From positions 1 through 64,000 of the forward strand of contig CAWBHS010000011.1 in assembly GCA_963788655.1 (NCBI GenBank): a stretch of DNA of 64,000 bases, read 5' to 3'. The translations under genes and the position numbers were made by a program. Positions within the stretch are counted from its first letter, which is position 1, and each line of letters starts with the position of its first letter. The DNA comes from an uncultured Verrucomicrobiae bacterium (lineage in GTDB: Bacteria; Verrucomicrobiota; Verrucomicrobiia; Limisphaerales; JAFGQR01). The notes under the pieces are model-generated. The model searched no databases. It was not told the DNA's origin and was given only the letters and a program-made list of their open reading frames with translations. This document shows, piece after piece, positions 925-20,558 of the stretch.

Positions 925-1645
925 ATGAATACGAAAATCTTCCGCTCACTAATTTCTCCCCGCAAACGGATTCGTTTGGCCGCAATGAAATTCGCGACTC
1001 GAGCTCCTTTGGGTCGTCTCAGCGCCCGGCTCAATCGCTTAACCGGCGCGCACGCGCTGGCAATCATGCTGTTTGCGCTGCTGCTGGCAGCCCCAATATC
1101 AGCCTATGCTCAGAAGCCCCCCGTAAATGTCGTAACCACAATCACTTGCGCTTCGAACCCTTTCAATATCTGCCAGGACCCGGTCACCCTTACTGTGGAC
1201 ATCGCGAAAGCACCGGTACGCCAGGGGGGACTTTCTTCCAAACTCTCCCAACCAAATGCAAAGTCGTGAACCTCGTCCGGCTTGCGCGGGCGTTACAGTC
1301 GTGCTTTCCGGCACGCCAAACGGCAACATTATCACCTACAGTTTATCAGTTGGTCTGGTTAACTGCACGGTGACCGCAGATTTCATCATTCCCTGCGATG
1401 CCAAACCCGACCCTATAACCAAAACCCTCGAGATCACCTACAGCTCGCGGAATCTTTCGCTCACGGCACCTCCCGCTTCTTTCCAGGTGCGCGTCCCCAT
1501 AATGAACCTCGATAATTTTATTGACGACGCCAGTAACCCTATTGATGGTACACGAACCTACACATTCACTCAGGACCTTCTCGTGTCGCCAGGCCGCTTT
1601 CGCCAGTTCGATTGCCTTGTTTCGGATGGTATGTCGTGTCCTTAG
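925..1645 (+). CDS. N-terminal part (signal peptide plus first domain) of a giant secreted protein, frameshifted near 1207, 1275 and 1630
   Basis: Signal peptide ALAIMLFALLLAAPISAYA|QK. Protein-like sequence moves between the overlapping ORFs 925-1269, 1146-1373 and 1256-1645, then into 1612-4260. Confidence 0.6.
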
Positions 1646-4260: not shown

Positions 4261-7200
4261 GCTGAGAAGTGCCGAATTCCTGGTCCCTGGCCGACCTGCA
4301 GACATTTTTGGGCAGTGGATCGGCGTGGCACACGAGGTTAAGCTAGGGGGACCGCTGCCGACAGTGACGTTCGACGGCTACATCGACGGCACCGGCACTC
4401 TGAAAAACTGGCCACTGTTCGACAAGGATGGTGACCCCATTGACATGTATATCCGGGGAGCGTTCAGCAATGAGTGCCCGGTTACTGTGGATGCTCTGGT
4501 TCCGCTCATGTTTCCCTACACCAGCCAATGGTACTCGCCTGACGCCGATTGTAAAACCGTGTTTTATGCCGATCCGACGGATCATTTAAAGCCGCTCGAT
4601 CTGACCTACTCGGCAGTCACCAAACTCAATACTCTCTCGCTACACAAGGCCGTAGATCCGTTTTCCGTCTTTTCAAGCACTCCCACGATAACCGGCCTCA
4701 CCTTAACTTTTGACGGTTGGCCGGGGACTTCGGTTAGCAATGCCTGGATTAAATTCTCTTCCCCCGGTTTGATCGTGACCCACGTTCAAAGGGGCAGCGG
4801 CCCATTTTTATTACCTGTCAACGGCTATTTTCATTTGGGAACCATCGAGAACGGATCCGCAAAGGCGGCGCTGATAAATTTCCAGGCGACACTCAACAAC
4901 TGTACCCCCGAAGTCAACATCCCGGTCACCATTGATTACGGTTACAATTGCTTTGGATTTCCTCCTGATTTCCCAGCCTGCTTCGCGGGACAGGGTAGTC
5001 TTGACGTGTATCCCGAGCCATCAGGCATGTCAATGACGGTGACTCCGCAGTCACAAACCGGAGTTCCGTGTGATACGTTTGATTACGTCGTGCGCATCAC
5101 CAGCACCCAGCTTGCCGACCTGGAGAATCCGCAACTGACCATCACGCTGCCCGCCGGGATGTCGTTTATCAAGGCGGAGTTCCAGAGGAACACAGACAGT
5201 TCGCGAACCCTTTTGGCCCGGCCAACGGGCAACGTCTTTGCCTGGAACATCAATCAGGTGGTGTACAACAATCAGGGAATGCCGCCCACTCCGGCCTATC
5301 TGGATTTGTTCGTTACCGTCATTGGCGGTTGCGCCGACTCCAATCCGCAACTCCTCTTTCAATCCAGCGGAGAGACGATCTGCGGAGGCGCCTTGAGCGT
5401 TGACGTCAACCCTTCACTTACGTTCACCAAACAGCCGGATCCTTCGGCCACGGCAACGGTGGCCATCACCCCGGTCACGGACTGCACCAGCCCGCTAAGT
5501 TTTGCCATAAATCTCGGCAACATTACTCACCCAGGCAACTTGATCGCCAAGGTCCATACCACTTACAATTCGGCGTTTATCCTGGCATCGTCCGTCCCTC
5601 AGGCTAAAAGCACTGCACCGGGAACCACTGACTGGGTGATTGATCCGGTCAGCGGCACCAGCCTCAACATTACGGCTGATCTCTCGATTCCAGCGGGTTT
5701 TTGCGACACCTTTCCGCTCACCGTGGTCGTGGATCTGATTGACGAAACCAGTTGCTGCACGAATACCGTGCAATATACCATCACCACCAACGAGCCCATT
5801 TGCTGCACCACCAACTGCTGCGAAGATTGCACGGAGGCGGATTATATCAGTTATAACGTGACCGTTAATCCAGGGGTCAATTACCTGGCGAACCATTTGT
5901 GCCAGGGCACGAACAACACAATTGAAAAAGTTCTGCCCACCGTGCCGGACGGCGCAATATTCTACGACTGGGACGAGGCAGCACAGGCCTACAGCCCGGC
6001 CCAGAGCTACTTTACCGGAGTTGGGTGGTTGGATCCATCATTTAACCCCTCCACTGACACCCTTGATCTCGGTGAAGGGTTCGTGCTGAACAATCCGGGC
6101 GCGGCGTTTACCCTCACCATCCAGGGATGTGATCCCGCTGGCTGTCTGCTGCCCTGTCTGCCTTCCACCAACCTCAACGACTGTGTGCTGGTCGGTCGGT
6201 ACGGCATCGGCACGGCCACCTGGATGAATCTCTCCCGTTGCGACCCCGAATGCGGCACGCGGGTGAGCATCTGGGATTCTACCAACCAGGTCTTCGGCGA
6301 CTACGATTATGTGAACGGCGTCTGGACGCCGCAGATCCCGGTGCTGGCGGTTGGGGAGTCGGCTTTCGTCTGCCTCCTGGCCAATACCAATTGCTGTGAG
6401 TTGCAGGTCCTTTGCGCCAGCAACAAGGTGGTGGAGTGCGGCACGGCTTGGACGTTTGATTCGCCCACAGTGCTTGCGAACTGTTGCACCAATTTCACCC
6501 TCGAAATCGTGAGCACGCTGACAAATCGTTCCGACCCGTGTGAAACCCTCATCACCCGATCCTGGCTGGTCACGGACTGCGAAACCAACAGTGCCACCTG
6601 CACCCAGACCGTCCGGGTGGTGGATACCACCCCGCCCGTCATCACCTGCGCCAACAACAAGACGGTGGAGTGTGGCACTAGCTGGACGTTTGACCTGCCC
6701 ACCGCTTATGACGTCTGCTGCACCAACGTGACCGTCGAGCTGGTCAGTTCGAACCTGGTGACCGGCCCGTGCCCGGACGTCTGGCAAGGCATCTGGCAGG
6801 CCATCGATTGCTGCACCAACATTTCCACTTGCACCCAGACGGTGACCGTGGTGGACACCACACCACCGGTTATTACCGATTGCTCGAACCTTTTTGTTTT
6901 GATTGCCAGTGGCCAGTCGTCCGCCGTCGTGAATTATGGGGTCAATGCCACGGACGCCTGTGCCAACCCGGTGACGTTGAGCTGCACACCACCAGCCGGA
7001 TCCTTCCCGCCTGGGATTCATCCCGTCACCTGCGTAGCCGTGGATGCCTGCGGCAACAGCAACACCTGCCAGTTCACCATTACGGTGTCCACCAACTGCT
7101 GCGATGGCTGTGAGCCACCGTATCCTGCCAGCTATACCGTGACTGTTACCCCAGGTGTCAACTTCCTCGCGAACCATTTGTGCCAGGGCACCAACAACAC

Positions 7201-8359
7201 CTTTGGGGATCTCCTGTCGAGTGTGCCCGTTGGTTCGCAGGTCCAGAAATGGAACGGCGCATCTTTTGTTCTATGGACCCGCGTGGGATTCGGCGCGGGC
7301 TGGTCTCCATCAGGTGGAGCCACCGAAACGCTTGACCCAGGCGAAGGGTTCGTGCTGAACAATGCCTCGGGCTCAAACTTCCCGCTCATCTTCGAGGGGT
7401 GTGAACCCACCTATTGCCCGATCCCCTGTCTGCCAACAACAAATGGAACCTCATCCCTCGTTGGCCGCCTCGGCATTGGGACCGCCACCTGGACCAATCT
7501 CTCCCGTTGCGACCCCGAATGCGGCACGCGGGTGAGCATCTGGAACGGCTCGGCCTACGACGATTACGATTACGTAAACGGTGCCTGGACGCCGCCCCTG
7601 CCGTCGCTGGCAATCGGCCAGTCGGCCTTTGTGAACTTGCTGGCCAATAGCAACTGCTGTGAACTGCAACTCCTCTGCGCCAGCAACCAGGTGGTGGAGT
7701 GCGGCACGGCGTGGTCGTTTAATCCGCCCACAGTGCTTACGAACTGTTGCACCAATGTCACCATTGCAGTCGTGAGCACACTGACCAACAGTTCGGTTCC
7801 GTGTGCAACCATGATCACCCGATCCTGGGAGGCTACGGACTGCAACGCCCACAGTGCGACTTGCACTCAGACCGTAACGGTGGTGGACACTACCCCGCCC
7901 ACCATGACCTGCGCCGGCGACCAGACGGTGGAGTGTGGTACTGACTGGACGTTTGATATCCCGCAGGTCTTTGACGCCTGTTGCGGGACGAACGTCACCC
8001 TCGCCATCCTCAGCACACAAACCAACGGTCTCTGTCCGCAGGTCACGACGAGGATCTGGCAGGCCACCGACTGTTGCGGCAATGTGGCGACTTGCACCCA
8101 GGTTGTAACTGTCGTTTTCAACGGTCCTCAGATAGTTCCGAATATCGTCACCTTGAACCATGATTCCACCGCTTTGCATCTAATCATTCAAACGCAGCCT
8201 TGTAACAACTACGTTTTTGAATGTAAGACCAGCTTGTCGCCTTCAGTTCCCTGGACAGTCTGCCAGACGGCGATCGGCGATGGAACGAATTATGAGTTTA
8301 TCGATCCGGCACCATTGCCAACCACCCGCTTTTATCGCGTGCGTCTGCTCTGTCCGTAG
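4124..8359 (+). CDS. C-terminal part of the giant secreted protein: DUF11-like and HYR-like repeats, a duplicated Cys-rich module and an RFYRV C-terminal domain
   Basis: 1411-aa ORF with three VVDTTPPxxTC/DC HYR-type junctions, two copies of the VTVxPGVNxLANHLCQGTNNT module, and the ending FIDPAPLPTTRFYRVRLLCP. Confidence 0.85.
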   Translation: MIFPMNFAPSLSGLVHGALTHNGGPASGAASAPPEMTLPPGPPVIKLRSAEFLVPGRPADIFGQWIGVAHEVKLGGPLPTVTFDGYIDGTGTLKNWPLFDKDGDPIDMYIRGAFSNECPVTVDALVPLMFPYTSQWYSPDADCKTVFYADPTDHLKPLDLTYSAVTKLNTLSLHKAVDPFSVFSSTPTITGLTLTFDGWPGTSVSNAWIKFSSPGLIVTHVQRGSGPFLLPVNGYFHLGTIENGSAKAALINFQATLNNCTPEVNIPVTIDYGYNCFGFPPDFPACFAGQGSLDVYPEPSGMSMTVTPQSQTGVPCDTFDYVVRITSTQLADLENPQLTITLPAGMSFIKAEFQRNTDSSRTLLARPTGNVFAWNINQVVYNNQGMPPTPAYLDLFVTVIGGCADSNPQLLFQSSGETICGGALSVDVNPSLTFTKQPDPSATATVAITPVTDCTSPLSFAINLGNITHPGNLIAKVHTTYNSAFILASSVPQAKSTAPGTTDWVIDPVSGTSLNITADLSIPAGFCDTFPLTVVVDLIDETSCCTNTVQYTITTNEPICCTTNCCEDCTEADYISYNVTVNPGVNYLANHLCQGTNNTIEKVLPTVPDGAIFYDWDEAAQAYSPAQSYFTGVGWLDPSFNPSTDTLDLGEGFVLNNPGAAFTLTIQGCDPAGCLLPCLPSTNLNDCVLVGRYGIGTATWMNLSRCDPECGTRVSIWDSTNQVFGDYDYVNGVWTPQIPVLAVGESAFVCLLANTNCCELQVLCASNKVVECGTAWTFDSPTVLANCCTNFTLEIVSTLTNRSDPCETLITRSWLVTDCETNSATCTQTVRVVDTTPPVITCANNKTVECGTSWTFDLPTAYDVCCTNVTVELVSSNLVTGPCPDVWQGIWQAIDCCTNISTCTQTVTVVDTTPPVITDCSNLFVLIASGQSSAVVNYGVNATDACANPVTLSCTPPAGSFPPGIHPVTCVAVDACGNSNTCQFTITVSTNCCDGCEPPYPASYTVTVTPGVNFLANHLCQGTNNTFGDLLSSVPVGSQVQKWNGASFVLWTRVGFGAGWSPSGGATETLDPGEGFVLNNASGSNFPLIFEGCEPTYCPIPCLPTTNGTSSLVGRLGIGTATWTNLSRCDPECGTRVSIWNGSAYDDYDYVNGAWTPPLPSLAIGQSAFVNLLANSNCCELQLLCASNQVVECGTAWSFNPPTVLTNCCTNVTIAVVSTLTNSSVPCATMITRSWEATDCNAHSATCTQTVTVVDTTPPTMTCAGDQTVECGTDWTFDIPQVFDACCGTNVTLAILSTQTNGLCPQVTTRIWQATDCCGNVATCTQVVTVVFNGPQIVPNIVTLNHDSTALHLIIQTQPCNNYVFECKTSLSPSVPWTVCQTAIGDGTNYEFIDPAPLPTTRFYRVRLLCP
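5810..8115 (+). repeat. Intragenic duplication of a ~1.27-1.28 kb module (copy 1 from ~5810, copy 2 from ~7091)
   Basis: Both copies start TNCC(E/D)xC. Bases 6227-6274 and 7496-7543 are identical over 48 nt, and gcgaaccatttgtgccagggcac occurs at 5888 and 7169. Confidence 0.9.
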
Positions 8360-8410: not shown

Positions 8411-8604
8411 TATCGCGTGCAGGATTTGCTTCATTCAAAAGCTTTGCGCCTCTTTGCTGACACGGCATTGGCATCAAGCGTCATGAACCTGAATTTCAGC
8501 ATTACGTTTACCGCCATTTCGTTCTACAGTGTGCGGTCATGCCGGTTGACGCAACAGAACGGATTTATGATTGGTCGCCCCGCGAAGCTCACTGGGGCGG
8601 GAGA

Positions 8605-10060
8605 ATGGCAAGGAGACTTGCCAGCACTGTGTTCACCATCCTGGCCGGCAGTTGCCTGCTGGCCGCCCAGGCTGGGCCTAAACTGTCTTTTACCGACATC
8701 TGGCGTGGGCCGAGTCTCCATGGAGGTCACGGTGCCATGTGGGCTGATGTGGACGGTGATGACCTACCCGATCTGTATCTGCCGCTGATCTTCTCGGGAA
8801 CCTTGCCTGACTTATTTCTGCACAACCAAGGCGGGGGCGCGTTTGTGGAGGAAGGCAAACTTCGCGGCATTGCGGACCGGGACGGCGGTTCTCACGGGGC
8901 GGCCTGGTGCGACTTGGACAATGACGGCGACTACGACTTGATCAACGGCACCACGTTCGAAGACGGCAGCGGCATCCAAAACGATGTGTTCCGGAATGAT
9001 GGGAACGGACGGTTCGTGGAAATGAAACCTCCGGCCCTCGAGTCGCGTCAGGAGGCCACCCGAGCGTTCCTCAGCTTTGACCTGGACCGAGACGGCGACC
9101 TGGATCTTTTCGGCGTCAACAATTACCAGGGCTCGGCAGACCCACCGGGCGAGCGAAACGAAGTCTATCGGAACGAAGGTGATTTCAAGTTTACGTCGGT
9201 CACCACCGGCGATTTATATACTGCCCCCGTGGGACAGGGGGCAACCGACACCGATTTTGACGGTGATGGCGACATTGATATACTGGCCGCCAATCGGTCC
9301 TGGGCCGGTTAACATCCTGAAGAATGACGGCCAAGGGAATTTCACGCTAACGGACCCTGCCTCAATCGGCATTCGGCACCAAGCTTTGGATGGGGTGACG
9401 ACGGCTGACGTGGATAACGATGGCGATCTGGATCTCCTGCTGATGGGCAACGGTGGAGCCGGAAATTTGTACACCAACGACGGAGACGGTACGTTCACTC
9501 ATGCGCAATCCTTTGCCGGAGCCGTCGGCTATATGGGAGGCTTTGCCGATTTGGACAATGATGGTGACTTGGATCTCTATTTCGCCGGTGATGCCAAAGT
9601 CTTCCTGAACGACGGTGAAGGCCGTTTTGCCCCTGGACCTGCGGTACCGGTGATTGGGACTAAAGATCCTCGCGGTGTTGCTTTTGCCGATCTGGATAAT
9701 GATGGTGACCTGGACTTTGCGTTCGGTGACAAACGGGCCAATCGGAATTACCTCCTTCGCAACGATCTTCGTGGTGGTGGAAACTGGTTAAAAATCCGGT
9801 TGGTCGCCCCCAACGGTCAAGCCGGTGCCTTTGGAGCCAAGACGTATATCTATGCCGTTGGTGAGGCAGGCAGCCAGCCCTTGGCCTTGCGCGAATCCCA
9901 AAGCAATTGCGGTTACCTGGGCCAGAACGATCCCGTGCTGCATTTCGGGCTCGGACCCCGTACGAGCGTCGATGTGGTGGTGGTGTTCTTGGATGGCACG
10001 AAGCAGAGGCGGCATCGTGTGACCGCCAACCAGACCATACGGATCATAGGTGTCCGGTGA
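8605..10060 (+). CDS. CRTAC1-like FG-GAP repeat / ASPIC-UnbV domain protein, secreted (one frameshift at ~9301)
   Basis: Signal peptide MARRLASTVFTILAGSCLLAAQA, repeated D(V/L/F)D(N/G)DGDLD motifs, and C-terminal GNWLKIRL...YLGQNDPVLHFGLG. ORFs 8539-9312 and 9077-10060 join if one base is removed at ~9301. Confidence 0.88.
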
Positions 10061-10168
10061 CGACCGGGTTGCCGCCGTTGCGTAGCCCATAATTGTCGCC
10101 CCCCACCTTTTCCCGTAGTACCGCGCCCGCCGCGCCCGCCGCTCGCGCAGGAACCGATCGCCATATTT

Positions 10169-10197
10169 AGTAGGAAAGGCGAGACGCCTGTCCTACT
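10169..10197. repeat. GTAG-type REP-like palindrome
   Basis: agtaggaaaggcg-aga-cgcctgtcctact forms a hairpin. Its reverse complement begins gtaggacaggcgtctcgcc, identical to 59193-59211. Confidence 0.75.
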
Positions 10198-10492
10198 GCA
10201 TAGTCACGGCTAAGTGGCCGCCCTCGGCCCGCAACGCCTACAGCAGTTTCATTCACGTATCTATTTAGATCCACTTGCAATCGAACGTGTGACGATGGAT
10301 TTTTCTGTCTCCTCAAACAACTTGCGTCCAGTCAGTTGCGCAACCAGCAACTCGAAAGAGCCATAAAAAGTTTGATGCTTTTGTAGTAGAGTTTTTATGA
10401 TGATGTTCTCGTCGTTTGACGGGCGGACGCTCGGCGGCTGGTCGGTGAACGGACGTTTAAACACTCAAAGAAAACTCAGAACAGAAAACGAC

Positions 10493-12214
10493 ATGTGCGG
10501 CATCGCCGGAATAATTAGTCAGGAAGAAAGCGACTTGGGTGCTCCCTTGAAGCGGATGCTCGGGACCATGGAACACCGCGGACCGGATGGTGCCGGATTT
10601 ATGGTGGGTAATTTAATCCAGCATGGAAACAGTCTGCAGGAACTGGATTTTGACGGCAAAGTGGGACGCGTCGCCTTGGGACACGTGCGCCTGGCGATTA
10701 CCGGCACGTCCACCGCCCTCCAACCCTTCCAAAGCCGCGACGGACGATTGACCCTGTTGCACAACGGGGAGATTTACAATTACCGTGAACTTGGTTCACA
10801 GACGCCCGGTCTTACCCCCCAGTCCGTGGGCAGTGACAGCGAGATCGTCCTGCGGGAATTGGAGCAGGAATACGACGGGGATCTCAAGGCAGCGGTCTTG
10901 CGCATCCTGCCCCGCCTGGATGGCGTGTATGCGTTGGCGATCACGGACCAAACACAAACCGTGGTCGTGCGGGACCGAATCGGCGTGCGCCAATTGTATT
11001 ACGCCCGGCAAAATGGCCACCTGGCCTTCGCCTCGGAAAAGAAGCCGCTGTGGGAACTGTGCGGTCGCGCGGCCGACGTCCGGCGCGTGGAGCCGGGCCA
11101 CCTGTTGGCCGTGGATCACCGGGGCGACAGCGTCCAGTCGTTCTGGCAGCCGGAACAACTGCGATCCGAAACGGTGATCACCGATCCGGAGCAGGCGTTG
11201 GCGAGTTATGATCAAGCCATCCGCTCGGCCATCGAGAAACGGATTCGCGGTCGTCAGCGCGTGGGTATTATTTTTTCGGGCGGCATTGACAGTGTGTTGG
11301 TCGCCCATCTGGTGCGTGAAGCCGGCGTGCCGTTCACCTGCTACACCGTGGGATGCGGCGAGCAGGCCGAGGATCTGGTGTGGGCCCGCGCAGTGGCAGG
11401 CCGCCTGGGCTTCCCCTTGGAAGCAACCATCCTGAAACCAGCGGACGTAGAGAAGCTGATCCCGGAAATCATCCGTGACATTGAAGACCACAGCCTGAAC
11501 CAAGTGGAAGTGGCCGTGCCGATCTACATCGCCAATCGGATGGCCCAGGAGGCCGGGGAACGCGTGCTGCTCACCGGTCAAGGGGCCGACGAGCTGTTTG
11601 GCGGCTACCCATGGTATTCGCGCGTGGCGGCCGCGGATGGATACGGAGAATTTGTGCGGCGGTCCTGGGAGGATACCTGCCTGCTCTACAAGGAATGCCT
11701 CGAACGCGAGGACAAAATTTCCATGGCCCATAGCATGGAATTGCGCGTGCCGTTCCTGGATCCAGAGGTCATCCGCGTGGCGTTTCAAATCGCACCAGAA
11801 TTGAAGATCCACAAGGGGGAGGATCCGTTGGGCAAACACATTCATCGCCTTTACTGCCGGGCCGTGGGAATACCGGATGACATCGCGAACCGCGTCAAAG
11901 CCGCCGCCCAACATGGCGCCAATGTCCATGATACCATCGAAAGTCTGGTCCGCCGGCAGTCTCCCGAGGCCACGGCCTTGCGGGGGGCTGCTTATGATCC
12001 GGACCGGTCGGTGACCGAAAAACTGGGGAGTTCCTCGCGGTATGGGTACCGCTACGGCGACGCGCAATTATGGAAACCCAATGCGGCGGTCCAATTCTAC
12101 CTGGATTCGCAGGCCGCCCGATTGGGCATGCTGCCGACGGCCGTGCAACATCACTGGCAGGAGGTCAACCAACGATTGAACCCAGCACCCAAAGCTTCCG
12201 CGCCAAGAACATGA
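10493..12214 (+). CDS. asnB: AsnB-family glutamine-dependent amidotransferase (asparagine synthase-like)
   Basis: N-terminal MCGIAG (Ntn Cys), HRGPD, HNGEIYNY, SDSE, SGGIDS ATP loop, TGQGADELFGGY and RVPFLD. Its stop overlaps the mpgS start (ATGA 12211-12214). Confidence 0.92.
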   Translation: MCGIAGIISQEESDLGAPLKRMLGTMEHRGPDGAGFMVGNLIQHGNSLQELDFDGKVGRVALGHVRLAITGTSTALQPFQSRDGRLTLLHNGEIYNYRELGSQTPGLTPQSVGSDSEIVLRELEQEYDGDLKAAVLRILPRLDGVYALAITDQTQTVVVRDRIGVRQLYYARQNGHLAFASEKKPLWELCGRAADVRRVEPGHLLAVDHRGDSVQSFWQPEQLRSETVITDPEQALASYDQAIRSAIEKRIRGRQRVGIIFSGGIDSVLVAHLVREAGVPFTCYTVGCGEQAEDLVWARAVAGRLGFPLEATILKPADVEKLIPEIIRDIEDHSLNQVEVAVPIYIANRMAQEAGERVLLTGQGADELFGGYPWYSRVAAADGYGEFVRRSWEDTCLLYKECLEREDKISMAHSMELRVPFLDPEVIRVAFQIAPELKIHKGEDPLGKHIHRLYCRAVGIPDDIANRVKAAAQHGANVHDTIESLVRRQSPEATALRGAAYDPDRSVTEKLGSSSRYGYRYGDAQLWKPNAAVQFYLDSQAARLGMLPTAVQHHWQEVNQRLNPAPKASAPRT

Positions 12215-13407
12215 GACTCGAACGACCGAAAGAGATCGAGCGGTTCGGCGCAATTCGCTTTGGCGATTTGCAGAAGATTTTCGAGTTGGATTCCGGTCTG
12301 GCGACGAGCAGCCCGGTGGTCAACTCCGCCATCATGCAAGTAGGCAACAGCTCGCTGGCCGAGGTGCAGAAGCAAATGGCCATCATCGTGCCGGTGCGCA
12401 GCGAGCGCTTGAAACTGGTGGAAGGCGTGCTGTGCGGCATTCCGCATCCCTGCCTGATCATCGTCGTTTCCAACAGCCCGCGCCGGCCGGTGGACCGTTT
12501 TGCCATGGAAGAAGACGCCTTGCAGGAATTCTGCACCTTTACGGACAAACAAGCGGTGATCATTCACCAGAAGGATCCGCTGATTGCCAAGGCGTTCAAC
12601 CAGGTGGGCTATCGCGAGTTGCTCACCCCTCAGGGACAAGTGCGGGATGGTAAAGCAGAAGGCATGCTCATCGGCACGGCCTTGGCCCGGCTGGCGGGCA
12701 AGAAGTATATCGGCTTTGTCGATGCGGACAATTACTTCCCCGGCGCGGTCGAGGAATACGTCCGGGTGTATGCGTCGATTTTCGCGACGAGCGATTCGCC
12801 CTACACGATGGTGCGGATTGTCTGGCACAGCAAACCCAAGATCGAGGAATCCAAACTGTTCTTCCGCAAATGGGGGCGCACCTCCAACCGCACGAACACG
12901 TTTCTGAACAAGCTGCTGGCACATTATACGGGCTTTGAAACGGAAATTATCAAGACCGGCAACGCCGGCGAGCACGCCATGACCATGGACATGGCGCTGG
13001 CGCTGGACTATTCCTCCGGGTATTCGATCGAGCCCTTCCACATCATCAACTTGATCGAAAAGTTCGGCGGCGTGCTGGACTGTCCCCTGCCGGACGTGAT
13101 GAAGCACAAAGTCGAAGTGTACCAGGTGGAGTCGCGCAACCCGCACCTGCACGAAGCGGGCGATGACAGCCATATCCAATCGATGCACTATCAGGCCATG
13201 CAGGTGATTTACCATTCGCCGGTCTGCCAGGCACCGCTGAAGAAAGAACTGCACGAAGCAATGATCAAGGGCGGTTGTCTCAAGCCCAAAACCCCTCCCG
13301 ACCGGCCGCGGTATTTCCCGGCCTTGCGCACCATCGATTTCACCAAGTTTCGGAAGATTCTCGCCAAACATCCTCCTTTAAAACTGCTGTTCGCCAAACG
13401 ATCATGA
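12211..13407 (+). CDS. mpgS: Mannosyl-3-phosphoglycerate synthase (GT55)
   Basis: MRLERPKEIERFGAIRF..QKIFELDSG, GIPHPCLIIVVSNS, VRDGKAEGM, YIGFVDADNYFPGAV, TGNAGEHAMT, SGYSIEP and ESRNPHLHE match the MpgS family. Confidence 0.93.
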   Translation: MRLERPKEIERFGAIRFGDLQKIFELDSGLATSSPVVNSAIMQVGNSSLAEVQKQMAIIVPVRSERLKLVEGVLCGIPHPCLIIVVSNSPRRPVDRFAMEEDALQEFCTFTDKQAVIIHQKDPLIAKAFNQVGYRELLTPQGQVRDGKAEGMLIGTALARLAGKKYIGFVDADNYFPGAVEEYVRVYASIFATSDSPYTMVRIVWHSKPKIEESKLFFRKWGRTSNRTNTFLNKLLAHYTGFETEIIKTGNAGEHAMTMDMALALDYSSGYSIEPFHIINLIEKFGGVLDCPLPDVMKHKVEVYQVESRNPHLHEAGDDSHIQSMHYQAMQVIYHSPVCQAPLKKELHEAMIKGGCLKPKTPPDRPRYFPALRTIDFTKFRKILAKHPPLKLLFAKRS

Positions 13408-15056
13408 ACATCTTGGATTGGGGCGTCATTGTCGTGTACCTCGGAGGCATCGTGGCGCTGGCCTACTGGCTGGGACGCCAACAAGTTTCACTCCGTGATT
13501 ATTATCTGGCCGGCCAGCGCGTGCCCTGGTGGCAGTCGGGCGTGTCGATCATGGCCACGCAACTCGGCGCCATCAGCTTCGTGTCGGCGCCGGCGTTTGT
13601 CGCGCTGGCCAAGGGCGGCGGCTTGAAATGGCTCTGCTACGAGTTCGGGGTGCCACTCGGCTTGATCCTGGTCATGGCGGTCATCATGCCCGTCTTGCAT
13701 CGCGGACAACACATCAGCATCTACGAATACCTGGAGCAGCGCTTTGACCGGCGGGTCCGTCTGCTGGTGAGCGTGCTCTTCCAACTGGGGCGCGGCCTGG
13801 CCACCGCCGTGTCCGTGCTGGCGGGCGGTCTGATTCTGTCCACGGCGCTGGCCATTCCCACCCCGACCGCCATCGTGGTCGTGGGATTGGTGACGTTGGT
13901 CTATGACGTGCTCGGCGGCATGCGGGTGGTGATCCTGAGCGACGTGTTGCAAATGGTCATCATCGTGGCCGGAATTCTGGTGTGCGGCGGCGTGGCGTGG
14001 CATTGGGTAGGCTGGGATCAGGCTTGGCAGACCATGGAGGCAGGCCGGTTGCAGATTCTGGACTTTGGCCGGGCGGGATTGAGCGCGGAGGGCGAATATG
14101 CCTTCTGGCCCATGGTGCTTGGCGGAATGATTCTTTACGCCTCCTATTACGGTTGTGACCAAAGCCAGGCCCAACGCCAGCTCTCGGTGGGCAGCTTGAA
14201 GGACATTCGAAAATCACTGCTGTTCAATGCGCTGGGCCGGTTCCCCGTCGTGCTGATGTATTGCTTGATGGGGGTCCTGGTCGGGGCCATTTTTCTGACT
14301 CCGGAAGGTTTGGCCCAGGTCACCACCGCCACCGGGATGGATCATTCGGCGCTTGCCGAGACGTTGTCGCGCGATCCGGATCGCATGCTTCCGATGTTCA
14401 TCCTTTCCTTCCTGCCGCACGGGTTGATTGGTTTCTTGTTCGTGGCGGTCATGGCCGCGTTGATGTCCAGTCTGGATTCCGCGATCAACTCGCTCAGCGC
14501 TGTGACCATGCGCGACGTGTATCAGATCTATATCCGGCCCCACGCCGAAGAACGGCATTATTTCACAATGTCGAAAGTTTTCACCGCCGGCTGGGGATTG
14601 TTTTGCATTTTCGCGGCGCTGGGTTTTGCCACCCTCGGTGAAGCCACCCGCCACACGACGATTGTGTTGATTAACGCCGTCGGCAGTCTGCTCTACGGAC
14701 CCATTCTGGCGGCTTTTATCCTGGGCATCATGACCCGGAAAGTGAGCGCGAAAGCCGTCTTCCTCGGCGTGGTGGTCGGCATCCTCACCAATTTGTGTGC
14801 CTGGCAACTGACCGACATCTCCTGGTTGTGGTGGAATGTCATCGGTTTCCTGGCCTCGCTGTTGTTTGCCGGTCTGATTACCGCCATGACACAGGAAGCC
14901 ACAGCGCCCTCGTCGGCGACCGGCGCGGTGGCGGTCGCGCAGGCTGGCGGCCCGGGCTGGCGATCTGTTTACGCGCTGGTCGGCGTCTATTTCCTGGTGA
15001 TCGTGGGCGTTTGTCTGTGGTTGCAGGCCCAGGTTGTTTCGCCGGTCGCCGGATAG
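13404..15056 (+). CDS. Sodium:solute symporter (SSS family)
   Basis: About 13-14 hydrophobic segments. Motifs DYYLAG, SIMATQLGAISF, SIYEYLEQRF, GGMRVVILSDVLQ, YGCDQSQAQR and AALMSSLDSAINSLS. Start overlaps the mpgS stop (ATGA). Confidence 0.92.
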   Translation: MNILDWGVIVVYLGGIVALAYWLGRQQVSLRDYYLAGQRVPWWQSGVSIMATQLGAISFVSAPAFVALAKGGGLKWLCYEFGVPLGLILVMAVIMPVLHRGQHISIYEYLEQRFDRRVRLLVSVLFQLGRGLATAVSVLAGGLILSTALAIPTPTAIVVVGLVTLVYDVLGGMRVVILSDVLQMVIIVAGILVCGGVAWHWVGWDQAWQTMEAGRLQILDFGRAGLSAEGEYAFWPMVLGGMILYASYYGCDQSQAQRQLSVGSLKDIRKSLLFNALGRFPVVLMYCLMGVLVGAIFLTPEGLAQVTTATGMDHSALAETLSRDPDRMLPMFILSFLPHGLIGFLFVAVMAALMSSLDSAINSLSAVTMRDVYQIYIRPHAEERHYFTMSKVFTAGWGLFCIFAALGFATLGEATRHTTIVLINAVGSLLYGPILAAFILGIMTRKVSAKAVFLGVVVGILTNLCAWQLTDISWLWWNVIGFLASLLFAGLITAMTQEATAPSSATGAVAVAQAGGPGWRSVYALVGVYFLVIVGVCLWLQAQVVSPVAG

Positions 15057-15084
15057 CGTCACGTCAATCCGCGCCCCTCACTCC

Positions 15085-15909
15085 ATGCCTCGGTCGCGTT
15101 ACATCGTCATCACGGACCTCGACGGAACGTTGCTGGATCACCATACCTATTCCTACGCGGAGTCCCTGCCCGGACTGCGCCTCCTGCAGGAGCATCACAT
15201 CCCGATTGTTTTCTGCTCCGCCAAAACGCGGGCCGAACAAATTGTGTTACGTCAGGCACTCGGAGTGCGGGATCCGTTCATCGTGGAGAACGGTGGTGCC
15301 GTGGTTTGGGAGACGGGATATTTTCGCCAACCGCTCCCGGACGCGCGCATTCAAGGCAATTACCAACGGCTGGAGTTGGCGCGCCCTTATTCCGAAGTGC
15401 GGCGCGTCCTCGCCGAGGTTACCGCGGAACTGAATTTGCCGGTGCAGGGCTTTGGCGACCTGACGCCCGCGGAAGTGGCGCAGTGCGCGGATTTTGATTT
15501 GGAATCCGCTACTCGCGCGATGCAACGCGAATATGCCGAAACCGTGGTCACCCCCTTGGACGAGGCTGCCCGCGAGCGATTGCGCGCCGCGTTGTCGGGG
15601 CGAGGGGTGAATTTGATTGTCGGTGCCCGGTTCCTCTCCATTTCCACCGCCAACGACAAAGGCCGCGCCGCGCAAGCCCTCGCCGATATGTTCCGCGCCG
15701 AATGGAGCGAAGTAGTCACCGTGGGCCTTGGCGATAGTCACAACGACGCGCCCTTGCTCGAGGCGGTGGACCTGCCGTTGCTCGTGCAACGTCCGGACGG
15801 TACCTGGACCGACATGCCGGTGAACGGTCTCCGCAAGATCAACCACATCGGCCCCCGCGGGTGGACCCAGGCGGCGCGAATGCTGGTGGAGAAGATTCAG
15901 TCCGACTAG
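15085..15909 (+). CDS. mpgP: Mannosyl-3-phosphoglycerate phosphatase (HAD IIB)
   Basis: TDLDGTLLDH, CSAKTRAE, PFIVENGG, REYAE, DKGRA, GLGDSHNDAPLL and GPRGW, in the same operon as mpgS. Confidence 0.92.
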   Translation: MPRSRYIVITDLDGTLLDHHTYSYAESLPGLRLLQEHHIPIVFCSAKTRAEQIVLRQALGVRDPFIVENGGAVVWETGYFRQPLPDARIQGNYQRLELARPYSEVRRVLAEVTAELNLPVQGFGDLTPAEVAQCADFDLESATRAMQREYAETVVTPLDEAARERLRAALSGRGVNLIVGARFLSISTANDKGRAAQALADMFRAEWSEVVTVGLGDSHNDAPLLEAVDLPLLVQRPDGTWTDMPVNGLRKINHIGPRGWTQAARMLVEKIQSD

Positions 15910-15914
15910 CGCCC

Positions 15915-17984
15915 TTATCCAGCGAGCCGCGCTGAACCGCGAACTCCCGCCAATGTCTGGCGCCGGCGGGCGCGGTGCAGCAGTCGATCCAGCCAGCGGA
16001 GGTATTGCACGAAGAACGGCCGGGAAAGCGGCATCCGTACCGCCAATTGCCGCGTGATTTGCTGATGATGCCGACCGCCGTAGAGAAACGCTTTTCGTTC
16101 GTGCCGGTCCATGCGCTCGCGTTCCAGCATCATCCAATTGCGATGAACGGCCAGTTGGGTTTCCCGCAGCAATAGCTCCAAGGCCAGCGACGGCTTGCGG
16201 CTTTGGCGGAGATCAGCTTCCATCGCCAGCGAGGCGCATTCGAACAACAGCGGAATTCGCGACACTGGATGCCAACTAAATTGCGTGGGGCTGAGGTCCA
16301 CAATCCACGGTCGTCCCTCCGGGCTGATGATCCGCAAAAAATAGTGCAGATCAGGGGTCCATTGGACGCGGCAACGGTAACCCAACCCGGAGAACACTTG
16401 GTAACCCGCCACGCTCACCAGGTCGCATATCCGCGGGTAATCCTGCCAGGCCCCGCGCTTTTCCTGCACCAGTCGGTGGATGATTTCCGCGACTTGCCGC
16501 AGCCGGCGGTCAAAGTCCGCCTCTTGCACGGGCGTCAGCGACTCCAGCGCGCGGGCCTGCACGGCTGCGAGAACGTCAGCCGTAAAGACCGGCGGTCCGG
16601 ACGTAATGCGGTCCACCGTCAACTGGATGGAGCGAATTCCCGGATGCAAATACAATGTCTTCAACTGCGGATCGCGGGCGGCCGCTTGGGGGGAAATGAC
16701 CAGGACGGGCTGGTGCAATTCCGGTGGGGCTTTCAAAGGCGTCATGATGTCCGTAAGCGTGCTCCACGAAAAGTAGGACGCGCCCAAGCCTTTGCCCGTA
16801 AACGGATCGTAGTACTCCCAATACCCCTCGTTCTTCACCAACTGCTGACTTTTTTCGACGATTTTCGCGGCGATATCCAGGTAATCGTAATTCAGCAAGC
16901 CGCGGCTCAGCAGCCAATGCATGTTGATCCACACCGGCCCGCGCCAATAGCGGTAACGATCGAAGCCTGGCGTCCGAAACGAGGCGCTGGGCACACCCAG
17001 ATGGTAATAAAACTCGCGGCGGTCCATGAGATGTTCCACCAGCGATTCCGCCGTGGCGGCCGTGGCGGCTTCCGCGTAAAGCGGCATGAATCCACCGATG
17101 GTCTTGACCCGGATCGGCTGTCCGGATTCCAAGTCCCGTGAATAGAAAAACCCATCCTTGGGATGCCAGCAGTAGCGCCGCAAGGCCCGGCGGGTTTGCG
17201 TCGCCCAGGCCAGGAACTTCGCCTGGTCCGCCTGCCGGCCCAACACCCAGGCCAGTTTCGCCAAGTCCTGGTTCGCTTTCGCCCAAACGGAATTAAAAAG
17301 CACGTCGGCTACGCGAAACGGAGACCGGAGCATCATGGCCCGCTGATTCCACCGGGCCTGCTGGAAAACGCGAATGAGCCCCCAGTAGAACCGGTAGTAA
17401 TCATCCGTCGGCCGCTGCGCCAGCGGTACCCGCTTGGTGTCGGCCCGCGGTGGCGGCTCAAAGCCCGGTGGCAAATGCTCCCGCAAGAAGGTGTCTTTCA
17501 AGCCGTCAAACGCGGGACTGTTGTCCATCCCGCTTTCCCATGGATGCAAAATCGCCACCAACCCCGTGTCGTCCGGATCGCGCACCTTTTTCAACCAACG
17601 ATGAAAGTGGACAATCTGCGGGTAGGCCCGTTTCAGGAACGCACGGTTGCCGGTCTTTTGAAAGACCAACTTGGCCGCCGGCGCCACCATCGGAGTCTGG
17701 GTGATGCCCGAATGCGGACCGCCGGTCTGCCAATCCGCCGGATTCGGGCGGTAACGGCTTGCGTCCACATGCGGGTTGAACGTGATATGTGGGATCATGC
17801 CATCCGGTTGCTGCGTCGCGAGCAGTGCGTCCATTTCGCGAAAGGCCAGTTCCGGCCGCAGATGCGCCAGCACGATGGCGTGGAAGCAGGCATCCCACAA
17901 CCAGAGGTGCGGATATTGCCCGGCGGAGGGCACGATGAAGCTTTGCGTACTATTGAATTCCAGCAAGTCTAAGGGCGACCACAT
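15915..17984 (-). CDS. GH63 mannosylglycerate/glucosylglycerate hydrolase-like protein with a ~270-aa C-terminal extension
   Basis: YPHLWLWDACFHAI, GMIPHI, SGITQTP, HPWESGMDNSP, YWRGPVWINMHW and EYYDPFTGKGLGASYFSWS. The extra C-terminal domain contains CDLVS...HYFL...IVDLSPTQF. Confidence 0.88.
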   Translation of the reverse strand: MWSPLDLLEFNSTQSFIVPSAGQYPHLWLWDACFHAIVLAHLRPELAFREMDALLATQQPDGMIPHITFNPHVDASRYRPNPADWQTGGPHSGITQTPMVAPAAKLVFQKTGNRAFLKRAYPQIVHFHRWLKKVRDPDDTGLVAILHPWESGMDNSPAFDGLKDTFLREHLPPGFEPPPRADTKRVPLAQRPTDDYYRFYWGLIRVFQQARWNQRAMMLRSPFRVADVLFNSVWAKANQDLAKLAWVLGRQADQAKFLAWATQTRRALRRYCWHPKDGFFYSRDLESGQPIRVKTIGGFMPLYAEAATAATAESLVEHLMDRREFYYHLGVPSASFRTPGFDRYRYWRGPVWINMHWLLSRGLLNYDYLDIAAKIVEKSQQLVKNEGYWEYYDPFTGKGLGASYFSWSTLTDIMTPLKAPPELHQPVLVISPQAAARDPQLKTLYLHPGIRSIQLTVDRITSGPPVFTADVLAAVQARALESLTPVQEADFDRRLRQVAEIIHRLVQEKRGAWQDYPRICDLVSVAGYQVFSGLGYRCRVQWTPDLHYFLRIISPEGRPWIVDLSPTQFSWHPVSRIPLLFECASLAMEADLRQSRKPSLALELLLRETQLAVHRNWMMLERERMDRHERKAFLYGGRHHQQITRQLAVRMPLSRPFFVQYLRWLDRLLHRARRRQTLAGVRGSARLAG

Positions 17985-18046
17985 GAAGCCAACCTTCCAA
18001 ATTTTTCCTGGGACGACAAGTACAGGATACCGATGGTCAGTATTTC

Positions 18047-18336
18047 GGTGAAGGCGGCATGGGCGTGGTCTATACGGCCGAACCAGAGCGCCCGGTCCGC
18101 CGCCGCATCGCTCTCAAGATCATCAAATTGGGCCTGGACACCCGCCAGGCCATCGCGCGGCCCGAGCCGGCGTCCTGGCCTGGCACCAGGCTGAGGCTGT
18201 CGAAGCCGAAGCCAATCGCCATTGGTTCGCCGCCGTCCACCAACTCAAACATCGGTTGCAACGCGAACCGAACAATTCGATTTTGCGGGACCGGCTCGCT
18301 CGCGCCCAAGCCGCGCTGGCCGAACAATCTCAATAA
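18047..18336 (+). pseudogene. Internally deleted Ser/Thr protein kinase gene remnant
   Basis: GEGGMGVVYTAEPERPVRRRIALKIIKLGLDTRQAIAR (kinase subdomains I-II) is joined out of frame to VLAWHQAEAVEAEANRHWFAAVHQLKHRLQREPNNSILRDRLARAQAAL*, a TPR-like tail. Confidence 0.75.
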
Positions 18337-18402
18337 GAAAGCGCCGTGATCTCATTTAAACGTTGCCGTGGACGCGCCTTCGTGACATGAGGTGAGCAGG
18401 AA

Positions 18403-20558
18403 ATGAACGACATTAAAGCGAAAGTCCTGCACCTGCTCGGGCAGCGGGATTATGTGCCCCTTAACGTTCCGGAGTTGCTGCGCCGGCTTCGCTTGGGGCC
18501 TCAGGGCCAACAGGAACTCCAACTGGTGCTGCGCGAACTGGCGCAGACCGGCCGCATCGCCCGCATCAAGGGCAACCGCTACATCCAGCCACGTGAAGCC
18601 GATCTCGTTCCCGGGCGAATTCGCATGAACCGCCAGGGCAAAGGCTTTCTCCAGCCGGATGATCCTGACTTGAAGGAAATCGTCATCCCGGAGAGCGCCA
18701 CGTCCACCGCCTTGCACGAAGACCGGGTGTTGGTGCGGTTGGATGTACGGCCCCAGGGGCTGCGACCAGAGTCGCGAGCGCCGTCCACCGGCACCGTTGT
18801 TCGCATCCTGGAACGTCGGCGCACGCGGATCGTCGGCACGCTGCAGCGCAGCCGGCAATTCCTCTTCGTGGTTCCCGACGATCCGCGCATTCCGCACGAC
18901 ATTTATGTTCTGCCGCGTCGCCCGGCCGGCCGGCCGGCGAACGTCGGGGACAAGGTGGTGGTCGGCTTGCGTGAATGGGAGTCGCGGCACACCAATCCGG
19001 AGGGCGAAATTCTCGAAGTGCTGGGTTCGCCGGATGAACCAGGCGTGGACATGAACTCGGTGCTGCGCCAATACGGCTTGCCCCTCCAGTTCCCCAAGAA
19101 CGCGCGGCACGAGGCGCGGTCCCTGGGGACGGCCATTACCCCGCACGATCTCCAGGGCCGGGTCGATTGCCGCCGACGCCGGGTTCTCACGATTGATCCG
19201 GACGACGCGAAGGATTTCGACGATGCCATTGGCTTGGAACGAGCCGGGCAAAATCAATGGCGACTGTGGGTCCACATCGCGGACGTGTCCCACTACGTCA
19301 AACCCGGCAGCGCACTCGATGTCGAAGCGCGCCAGCGCGGCAACTCGACCTATCTCGTGGACCGCGTCATTCCCATGCTTCCGGAGGAATTGAGTAACGA
19401 ACTCTGCTCGCTCAAGCCCGAAGTGGACCGCCTCACGAAATGTGTCGAGTTCCTCCTCGCACCTGACGGCCGGGTGTTGCGGACGAAGTTCTACGCGGCG
19501 GTGATTCATTCGCGGCGCCGACTGACGTACGCCGAAGCCCTCGGTATTCTGCAACGCAAACCCACCGGCCCGCTCGACGAGATGCTGCACCAGGCGCACG
19601 CCCTGGCTCAGCGCCTCCGCCGCGCCCGTTTCAAGGCTGGTGCGCTCGCGCTCGATTTTCCGGAAATGAAGATTCGGTTGGACCAGCAGGGACGCGTGGA
19701 CCGCATCGAGAAAGTGGAGAACGACGTGTCGCACCAACTCATCGAGGAATTCATGCTGCTGGCCAACGAGGCGGTGGCCGCCCGGTGATTGGCGCTGCGC
19801 CGACCGGCGGTGTATCGCGTTCATGAGGCACCCGACGAAGCCCGGCTGGAGGAATATCGCCAGGAGGTTTTGAGCCATAACGTGCCCTGCGGCAATCTCC
19901 GTCACCGGGCCGAAGTGCAACGGTTGCTGCACAAGCTCGACACGTCTGCCCATCGGGGCGGCGCTCAAGATCGGCTTTCTCAAATCGCTGCATGCGGGCC
20001 CGCTACGCGGTGGAACCGCTCGGCCATTATGGACTGGCCAAGACGAAATACACGCACTTCACCTCGCCCATCCGCCGTTACGCCGACCTCGTGGTGCATC
20101 GCGCGCTGTTCGACCGAACCGCCGCCTCGACTTCGGCGCTCAAGGAAACCGCCGAACACATCTCGGTGACGGAACGCAACTCCGCCGACGCCGAGCGCGA
20201 CAGCAAGGACGTGAAGCTCTTGGCGTTTCTCGAGGGCCAGCTTCGCTCCGGCCGGCCGCAGCCGTATCCGGCGCTGGTGACGGATATGCGCAACTTCGGC
20301 TTCTTCGTGGACGTGCCCGGATTGGCCATGAGCGGTCTGGTGCCGCTCTCGGCGCTGGAGGACGATTTTTACGTGTTCGACACAGCACGCAACCAACTCG
20401 TCGGCCGCCGGACCCGCCACGTGATCCGACTCGGCGACCGGGTGACAGTTCAGGTGTTCAAAGTGAATCCGTTCAAGAAACAAGTGGATTTCCAACTGGC
20501 TCCCGACCGCCCACCCGCCCGTCGCCGAGCCGTTCGCGCCCGAAAGGAACGTCATTGA
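18403..20558 (+). CDS. rnr: Ribonuclease R (interrupted by TGA at 19786-19788 and indels near 19945 and 19990, probably assembly errors)
   Basis: Cold-shock domains, [58 protein letters not shown] and a C-terminal S1 domain, spread over ORFs 18403-19788, 19789-20169 and 19992-20558. Confidence 0.92.

Follow-up and report, generated by a model that had tools for sequence, protein, structure and literature searches.

The window examined here, by which we mean the whole stretch analysed, comprises 64,000 nt (positions 1–64,000 of contig CAWBHS010000011.1, assembly GCA_963788655.1) from an uncultured Verrucomicrobiae bacterium. It carries five adjacent genes, listed in the table below. An AsnB-like gene, which codes for a glutamine-dependent amidotransferase, is followed by mpgS, by the gene of a transporter of the sodium:solute symporter (SSS) family and by mpgP, and the gene of a GH63 protein converges on the latter. 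MpgS produces mannosyl-3-phosphoglycerate (MPG) from GDP-mannose and 3-phosphoglycerate (3-PGA), and MpgP dephosphorylates MPG to give mannosylglycerate (MG). The present work is concerned with the function of the AsnB-like protein in the vicinity of these enzymes.

The two-step MpgS/MpgP pathway, known from Thermus, Pyrococcus and Rhodothermus, is described in PMC6240254, according to which MG attracts commercial interest because it stabilises proteins. Knowledge of mannosylglyceramide goes back to the late 1990s (ref. 34 of PMC1224877), and PMC1224877 presents it as the salt-favoured neutral partner of MG in Rhodothermus marinus. A paper on a metabolic model of this organism lists RMAR_RS11910 and RMAR_RS10310, both annotated as asparagine synthase genes (PMC11730185). 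A full-text literature search, whose coverage largely leaves out subscription journals, returned no named gene for the synthesis of mannosylglyceramide. To our knowledge, the reviews describe the pathway to this solute as unknown.

Table. Features of the five-gene cluster in the window, and positions of the MarR genes found in related loci
Feature	Sequence	Position	Strand	Remarks
AsnB-like glutamine-dependent amidotransferase, 573 aa (P0001)	window	10493..12214	+	GATase_6/7 and Asn_synthase domains; candidate mannosylglycerate/MPG amidotransferase
mpgS, mannosyl-3-phosphoglycerate synthase, 398 aa (P0002)	window	12211..13407	+	PF09488, TIGR02460
sodium:solute symporter (SSS) family transporter, 550 aa (P0003)	window	13404..15056	+	PF00474, TIGR00813
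mpgP, mannosyl-3-phosphoglycerate phosphatase family, 274 aa (P0004)	window	15085..15909	+	TIGR01486
GH63 mannosylglycerate-hydrolase-like protein, 689 aa (P0005)	window	15915..17984	-	PF22422; convergent to mpgP
ATGA, stop (TGA) of the AsnB-like gene and start of mpgS	window	12211..12214	+	sequence read directly
ATGA, stop of mpgS and start of the SSS gene	window	13404..13407	+	sequence read directly
non-coding stretch 5' of the operon	window	10061..10492	+	no MarR gene, in contrast to 6 of 10 related loci
MarR gene	L003	9089-9874
MarR gene	L004	9089-9700
MarR gene	L005	7233-7799
MarR gene	L006	~2324-2848
MarR gene	L007	929-1582
MarR gene	L009	9267-9920

The identities of the genes and the structure of the operon are established. 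The preliminary description of this DNA, which had read the locus as a mannosylglyceramide pathway, gave five genes, two ATGA overlaps and two short gaps, and all of these were confirmed base for base: 28 bp separate the SSS gene from mpgP (stop at 15056, start at 15085), and 5 bp separate mpgP from the GH63 gene (mpgP stop at 15909, end of the reverse-strand gene at 15915). The AsnB-like gene starts with the ATG at 10493, which gives a protein with the N-terminus MCGIAG. Its open reading frame (ORF) can be extended 5' to 10397; this start was rejected because all homologs start at MCG and a class II amidotransferase requires a cysteine right after the methionine.

MpgS, a GT55 protein, matches PF09488 (Osmo_MPGsynth; E 7.7e-153) and, over residues 3–384 of 398, the equivalog TIGR02460 (482.6 bits, for a cut-off of 351.2). 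MpgP belongs to the HAD-IIB MPGP family TIGR01486 (233.2 bits, cut-off 164.75) and scores 226.3 bits with the narrower equivalog TIGR02461, slightly below the cut-off of 244.35. With both proteins matching curated models, the locus resembles the known MpgS/MpgP pathway; it differs from it in that mpgS and mpgP are split by the SSS gene and preceded by an amidotransferase gene. We know of no description of an mpgS operon of such a composition.

The transporter matches PF00474 (SSF; E 4.5e-43) and TIGR00813 (226.2 bits), and reaches no equivalog cut-off. The GH63 protein contains a full-length MGH1-like GH domain (PF22422, residues 24–408, 353.3 bits, E 2.6e-105) and scores 274.6 bits with the model of glucosylglycerate hydrolase NF047898, under the cut-off of 550. 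Its C-terminal part of about 280 aa (15918–16757, minus strand) matches no Pfam family, even when E values up to 1 are admitted, and the last 75 residues or so are 43% identical to a stretch encoded at the end of the related locus L001 (14079–14300, minus strand), in a gene that is convergent to mpgP there as well.

The AsnB-like protein passes the broad model TIGR01536, "asparagine synthase (glutamine-hydrolyzing)", with 319.7 bits for a cut-off of 267.1. It does not reach the AsnB equivalog NF006949 (251 bits, cut-off 499), nor the model of AsnO from the NAGGN pathway, TIGR03104 (186.5 bits, cut-off 570.1). The scores obtained with the models of the lasso cyclase (96.3, cut-off 525) and of the macrolactam cyclase (42.6, cut-off 300) are lower still.

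Conserved linkage of the AsnB-like gene to mpgS

A scan of 185,579 species genomes gave 80 loci with an AsnB-family gene, 10 of them close (L001–L010, 46–62% identity to the AsnB-like protein) and 70 distant (23–36%). The four other proteins of the cluster were compared by tblastn with all 80 loci. The preliminary description had stated beforehand that its reading would fail if the close homologs were not linked to mpgS, and this check came out in its favour. In six of the ten close loci (L001–L006), mpgS is directly downstream of the AsnB-like gene, its start lying at most about 20 bp from the stop or overlapping it. None of the 70 distant loci has mpgS within 10 kb, nor did tblastn detect in them any homolog of MpgS, of the SSS transporter or of MpgP. 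The linkage is not confined to one phylum, since the hosts of L001–L006 are Verrucomicrobiota (two), Acidobacteriota (two), Krumholzibacteriota (one) and an unclassified bacterium (one). The contigs of L002 and L006 run out inside mpgS. The SSS gene is found at the same position in L003, L004 and L005, and mpgP in L001, L003 and L005.

The overlap between the AsnB-like gene and mpgS also occurs as ATGA in L003, L004 and L005, and that between mpgS and the SSS gene in L003 and L004. Since both overlaps recur in related loci, the arrangement of these genes is not due to chance. In the subgroup of the window's own protein, defined below, mpgS is immediately 3' of the AsnB-like gene in seven loci out of seven, the window included, and four of them have the ATGA overlap.

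The close relatives of the AsnB-like protein are numerous: more than 119 homologs are 55–72% identical to it across some 98% of its sequence, and their named hosts are Verrucomicrobia, Latescibacteria, Krumholzibacteria, Calditrichaceae and Deltaproteobacteria. The clade is sharply set off from the rest of the family, with 46–72% identity inside it against at most 36% to other AsnB-family proteins. A profile built from 71 clade sequences and searched against 1.84 billion representatives gives the same picture: members score 500–850 bits, whereas proteins with the canonical Arg and Glu of asparagine synthetases reach only about 260–270 bits. In a collection of plasmids searched by tblastn, the best AsnB-family match is 31% identical, so that no member of the clade is found there, and there is no match to MpgS.

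The tree was computed from 135 rows: E. coli AsnB, 6 of the 59 distant proteins of full length, and the 128 clade sequences that reach 500 aa (two shorter ones were dropped). FastTree was the sole method and its supports, which are SH-like only, are to be read with the long branches flagged in mind. The clade is recovered with support 100 as a single branch, which a long stem separates from E. coli AsnB. Inside it, a subgroup of 124 rows (support 89) contains the protein of the window and all 34 mpgS-linked rows, which occur on all the main branches of the subgroup. The proteins of L007, L008 and L009 are its sister group (support 98), and that of L010 is basal.

The metagenomic homologs point in the same direction. 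Two proteins were taken to lie on the same contig when the listed size of their longest contig was identical, no value being repeated within any list. On this basis, of the 119 AsnB-like homologs listed, 27 lie on a contig that also carries one of the 119 best MpgS homologs, for 15 the contig carries one of the 119 best SSS homologs, and 36 have a partner of either or both kinds. As only the best-listed MpgS and SSS homologs were compared, these counts are lower bounds among the matches listed; the MpgS of L004, for instance, is itself outside the list. The procedure was validated in two ways. The listed contig sizes equal the true ones for L001, L004, L005 and L006, and the distance matrices of the AsnB-like and MpgS proteins of 28 pairs are correlated (Mantel r 0.817), a value which was equalled in none of 2000 permutations.

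Other genes recur in this neighbourhood. A MarR regulator of one subfamily (35–56% identity between loci) is encoded directly 5' of the AsnB-like gene in six of the ten close loci, L003–L007 and L009; neither the 70 distant loci nor the window has a gene of this subfamily. It thus precedes AsnB-like genes that are linked to mpgS as well as others that are linked to a carbon-nitrogen hydrolase gene. A GH38 gene adjoins the operon in L003 and L006, the two copies being 61% identical; its best NCBIfam match is mannosylglycerate hydrolase, with 203.7 bits for a cut-off of 1138. In the window it is GH63 that flanks the operon, as is probably also the case in L001, so that two unrelated families of the MG-hydrolase type occupy the same neighbourhood. 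The GH63 protein of the window has the full MGH1-like domain in common with mannosylglycerate hydrolases, and mannosylglycerate hydrolase (GH38 MngB) is the best match of the GH38 proteins. Both differ from these hydrolases in scoring below the equivalog cut-offs, and the GH63 protein does so also by its additional C-terminal part. The suggestion made from the window alone, that the locus would be a module for synthesis, uptake and recycling, fits the presence of the SSS gene in the window and in L003–L005, and that of one or the other hydrolase family, as far as can be judged from predicted families.

Intact glutaminase and ATP sites and an altered acceptor site

We aligned E. coli AsnB (MG1655 record), 130 clade sequences and 59 of the distant proteins. 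The glutaminase site is intact: C2, R66, N91, G92, E93 and D115 of the AsnB-like protein correspond to Cys-1, Arg-49, Asn-74, Gly-75, Glu-76 and Asp-98 of the E. coli enzyme, the last five of which are given as glutamine-binding residues in PMC5775275. These five are conserved in 127–129 of the 130 clade sequences. The catalytic C2 is present in 116 of them, the other 14 having a gap at a truncated N-terminus. The PP-loop SGGxDS is intact as well (S262-G-G-I-D-S267, with five of the six positions invariant), as is K469, the equivalent of Lys-449; taken together, the glutaminase residues other than C2, the PP-loop and K469 are kept in 127–130 of the 130 sequences. Since these residues are retained, the enzyme should still form a primary amide via an acyl-adenylate.

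The acceptor site, on the contrary, is altered. According to PMC5775275, Thr-322, Thr-323 and Arg-325 of E. coli AsnB contribute to aspartate and ATP binding. The T-T-I-R stretch that contains them has become N/x-Q-V-E in the clade, N336, Q337 and E339 replacing the three residues. Q337 and E339 are present in all 130 sequences. N336 is found in 125 of the 126 sequences of the mpgS-linked subgroup, the sister and archaeal sequences having Ile, Leu, Ile and Gly; this specificity of N336 hints that the acceptor may differ between the subgroups. The equivalent of E. coli Glu-348 is Q363 in 130 of 130 sequences. The corresponding residue of human asparagine synthetase (ASNS), Glu-364, is described in PMC6748925 as conserved in known asparagine synthetases and is modelled there beside the aspartyl moiety; supplied with aspartate, ATP and ammonium, neither the E364A nor the E364Q variant is active. 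The active site departs from that of true asparagine synthetases at residues required for aspartate activation, which lends weight to the earlier idea that the acceptor would be other than aspartate.

A confident AlphaFold model of the AsnB-like protein (pLDDT 88.1, pTM 0.90) shows a structured C-terminal extension. In 71 sequences E509, G512, S513, R516, Y517, G518, W527, Q534 and L537 are invariant, and the extension carries the motif GSSxRYGYRY...W...Q..L. It had been suggested that this extension may mark the subfamily. It is indeed conserved across the clade, but L007–L010, where no mpgS is adjacent, have it too, as do representatives further away, so that it marks a family wider than the mpgS-linked one. 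The specificity class to which the protein would belong has a simple sequence signature, the combination of N-Q-x-E, G-Q-G-A-D-E and the C-terminal RYG motif.

The best Foldseek match of the model is E. coli AsnB (1ct9; E 1.5e-28, TM 0.86 when normalised to 1ct9, 24% identity). The protein has in common with E. coli AsnB (1CT9) and human ASNS (6GQ3) the two domains, the fold, the N-terminal Cys glutaminase, the SGGxDS motif and the equivalent of Lys-449. Because of this common architecture, fold and set of residues, it most likely works as AsnB does, by hydrolysing glutamine, channelling ammonia through a tunnel and forming an acyl-adenylate that is converted into an amide. It differs from both enzymes in its sequence (23–25% identity), in having N/Q/E and Q in place of Thr-322, Thr-323, Arg-325 and Glu-348, in its structured C-terminal extension, and in that its gene belongs to an mpgS operon instead of standing alone. 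The hydroxyamidotransferase TsnB9 (7YLZ), the beta-lactam synthetase and CarA have the same fold, in a family that accepts acceptors other than aspartate; they are further off than AsnB (query-normalised TM 0.62–0.67, versus 0.73–0.75) and differ in their chemistry or acceptor.

Proposed reaction and alternatives

AsnO, encoded by asnO beside ngg for the synthesis of N-acetylglutaminylglutamine amide (NAGGN), is an AsnB-family amidotransferase that amidates the carboxylate of an osmolyte precursor, and its gene is next to that of the enzyme which builds the precursor. By analogy, it is the closest functional counterpart of the AsnB-like protein that we can point to. It differs from it in that the protein of the window is no member of TIGR03104 and that the neighbouring synthase is MpgS; no ngg-type gene lies near the AsnB-like gene.

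The pathway encoded by this operon has only three carboxylates specific to it, 3-PGA, MPG and MG. The simplest reading, which we consider reasonably probable on sequence grounds, is that the AsnB-like protein is a glutamine-dependent amidotransferase that makes mannosylglyceramide from MG or MPG, within a five-gene osmolyte module: the glutamine and ATP chemistry is kept, the residues for aspartate are lost, and the gene is locked, often translationally, to those that make MG. In such a mechanism, the N-terminal cysteine would hydrolyse glutamine, and the ammonia would pass through the usual tunnel. At the PP-loop domain, the carboxylate of the glycerate moiety in MG, or in its phosphorylated precursor, would be adenylated, and the primary amide released would be mannosylglyceramide, a neutral solute. 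Amidation could occur either before or after the dephosphorylation by MpgP. Judging from their families and positions, the SSS transporter would carry the solute, or a precursor, into the cell or recapture it, and the convergent GH63 protein would recycle the solute. The earlier reading of the locus as a mannosylglyceramide pathway is partly supported, mannosylglyceramide being the product that we infer.

Several observations weigh against this proposal. Four of the ten close loci (L007–L010) have no mpgS in the stretches examined. The gene order is MarR, AsnB-like, carbon-nitrogen hydrolase in L007 and L009, which are to be counted as one lineage since their neighbouring genes are 90–94% identical. 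In L008 a trehalose-phosphatase-type (otsB-like) gene and a GT20 otsA-like gene, which together span 4473–6884, precede the AsnB-like gene, a further setting related to compatible solutes, and the 3 kb beyond the AsnB-like gene contain no mpgS; the phosphatase scores 89.9 bits with the T6PP model TIGR00685, above its cut-off, and the GT20 protein 502 bits with TIGR02400, under 564.85. In the archaeal locus L010 (Nitrososphaera) the AsnB-like gene is flanked by genes of TrmB- and ArsR-type regulators. These sister and archaeal loci imply that the wider family is not positionally tied to mpgS. Among the metagenomic homologs, 29 of the 48 that are on contigs of at least 10 kb have no partner among the MpgS and SSS matches listed. 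As for the active site, Q337, E339, Q363 and the C-terminal motif are common to the wider family, including the loci without mpgS. A Gln at the position of Glu-348 is also frequent in many other AsnB-like subfamilies, and it therefore speaks against the use of aspartate, not for that of MG. The acidic pocket is partly kept (D366, E367 and E401, together with R405 and K469; they are equivalent to D351/E352, to an Asp-384-like residue and to R387/K449), and the protein passes the broad asparagine synthase model. Last, Rhodothermus is the sole reported source of mannosylglyceramide (PMC1224877).

Part of this evidence favours a different acceptor. It may be that the AsnB-like protein amidates another carboxylate used in osmoadaptation, such as glucosylglycerate, free glycerate, 3-PGA, an N-acyl amino acid or a compound that the SSS transporter brings in, that it shares only its regulation with MG synthesis, and that the product is another amide solute; we regard this as unlikely, though far from negligible. 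The sister subgroup stands beside trehalose-type genes or a carbon-nitrogen hydrolase gene, with no mpgS seen, the same MarR subfamily precedes both types of context, and the transporter of the operon could provide the substrate. On the other hand, all seven loci of the window's subgroup have mpgS directly 3', four of them with overlapping codons, and N336 (125 of 126 sequences, versus I, L, I and G) separates this subgroup from its sisters at the active site, so that the sisters may use another substrate with no bearing on the enzyme of the window. Besides, MPGS is reported elsewhere in the genomes of Nitrososphaerales in PMC7554672 and PMC4084955, which makes the archaeal locus at least compatible with a co-occurrence of the two enzymes.

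That the AsnB-like protein is a true, albeit divergent, asparagine synthetase, fixed beside mpgS as the organism's route to asparagine or as an extra copy induced by stress, seems improbable to us. Its score with TIGR01536 and the fact that E. coli AsnB and human ASNS are the best structural matches are in line with such a function, as are the absence of a second AsnB from the 64-kb window and the size of the family, which extends over many phyla. Yet the score with the AsnB equivalog is about half of the cut-off, and Thr-322, Thr-323, Arg-325 and Glu-348 are all replaced in 130 sequences, the E364Q replacement being inactivating in the human enzyme (PMC6748925). A housekeeping gene would not be expected to be coupled ahead of mpgS, under a MarR regulator, in at least three phyla and with a divergence that follows that of MpgS (r 0.82). 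The gap in profile score between clade members and those representatives in which the canonical Arg and Glu are present also argues against it.

It is very improbable that the protein cyclises or ligates its substrate, with no transfer of ammonia to a free acid, as the beta-lactam and carbapenam synthetases and the lasso-peptide cyclases do: such enzymes belong to the same fold family and are among the weaker matches, but the known ones have lost the N-terminal Cys or the glutaminase, which the clade keeps throughout with the glutamine-binding residues, the scores with the cyclase models are far below the cut-offs, and there is no precursor peptide or beta-lactam gene nearby.

Returning to the amidation of MG or MPG, the operon type is conserved and real and, apparently, undescribed, and the AsnB-like protein is the best candidate so far for the orphan enzyme that amidates MG, a well-founded one, as a specificity variant inside the AsnB family. 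The cluster supplies a concrete, testable enzyme and would define a new specificity class of this family with a simple signature. Should the proposal hold, it would fill an orphan reaction, co-expression of the gene with mpgS and mpgP would make the solute producible, and the use of sugar-glycerate amides would extend to many phyla known chiefly from metagenomes.

A broader version of the proposal is more tentative and, to us, somewhat less probable than not. The clade would be the missing mannosylglyceramide synthase, and the neutral amide, so far taken for a peculiarity of Rhodothermus, would be widespread as a compatible solute among bacteria that are mostly uncultured and for the larger part not thermophilic (Verrucomicrobiota, Acidobacteriota, Krumholzibacteriota, Latescibacterota, Calditrichota, Bacteroidota and others). 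The operon, under the control of MarR, would switch between the anionic and uncharged forms of the solute, and the carbon-nitrogen hydrolase of the sister group would be an amide-to-acid switch.

This hydrolase is a 269-aa protein (PF00795) encoded in the position of mpgS, behind the MarR and AsnB-like genes (L007 3425–4234, L009 11770–12579), and its family is such that it could be an amidase which reverses the amidation. In L007 the next gene, on the opposite strand, codes for a DUF819 membrane protein.

A cultured relative may carry the cluster, since Caldithrix abyssi is the named host of an SSS homolog that is 62% identical to the transporter of the window (P0463), and a Calditrichaceae bacterium is that of an AsnB-like homolog (P0052). 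A feature-based search of the ESM Atlas for look-alikes of the AsnB-like protein gave only clusters labelled "asparagine synthetase", whose members come from Nitrososphaerota, Thermodesulfobacteriota, Chloroflexota and giant viruses; the largest giant-virus (Nucleocytoviricota) cluster, labelled "asparagine synthase", has 738 members, 98% of them viral.

Other sequences of the window

The region upstream of the operon has a single promoter-like site at 10372–10401, and the scan of this region for promoters and terminators gave site counts that are not above those of shuffled sequence. An Rfam search of 9500–18500 gave no match. The domains of amidases, of GatB-type proteins, of CN_hydrolase and of MarR are absent from the 43 larger ORFs of the window that were scanned.

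Beyond the non-coding stretch of 430 bp, the upstream neighbours of the operon are FG-GAP/ASPIC genes. Two overlapping ORFs in different frames, 8539–9312 and 9077–10060 (plus strand), both contain FG-GAP repeats, the second one also ASPIC/UnbV; they may be one gene broken by a frameshift or a sequencing error. Further upstream, 4124–8359 (plus strand) codes for a 1411-aa protein with HYR domains, and is preceded by an 882-aa ORF (1612–4260, plus strand) for which a Pfam search gave no match. Both products look like large surface-type proteins.

On the other side of the cluster, in 18352–19983, an ORF of the RNase II/R type (18403–19788, plus strand; RNB, CSD2 and OB domains) overlaps a longer ORF of the opposite strand that has no family match. 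The RNB match ends at position 212 of the 326 of the profile, exactly where the ORF of the RNase II/R type ends. The plus-strand ORF is probably the real gene of the pair.

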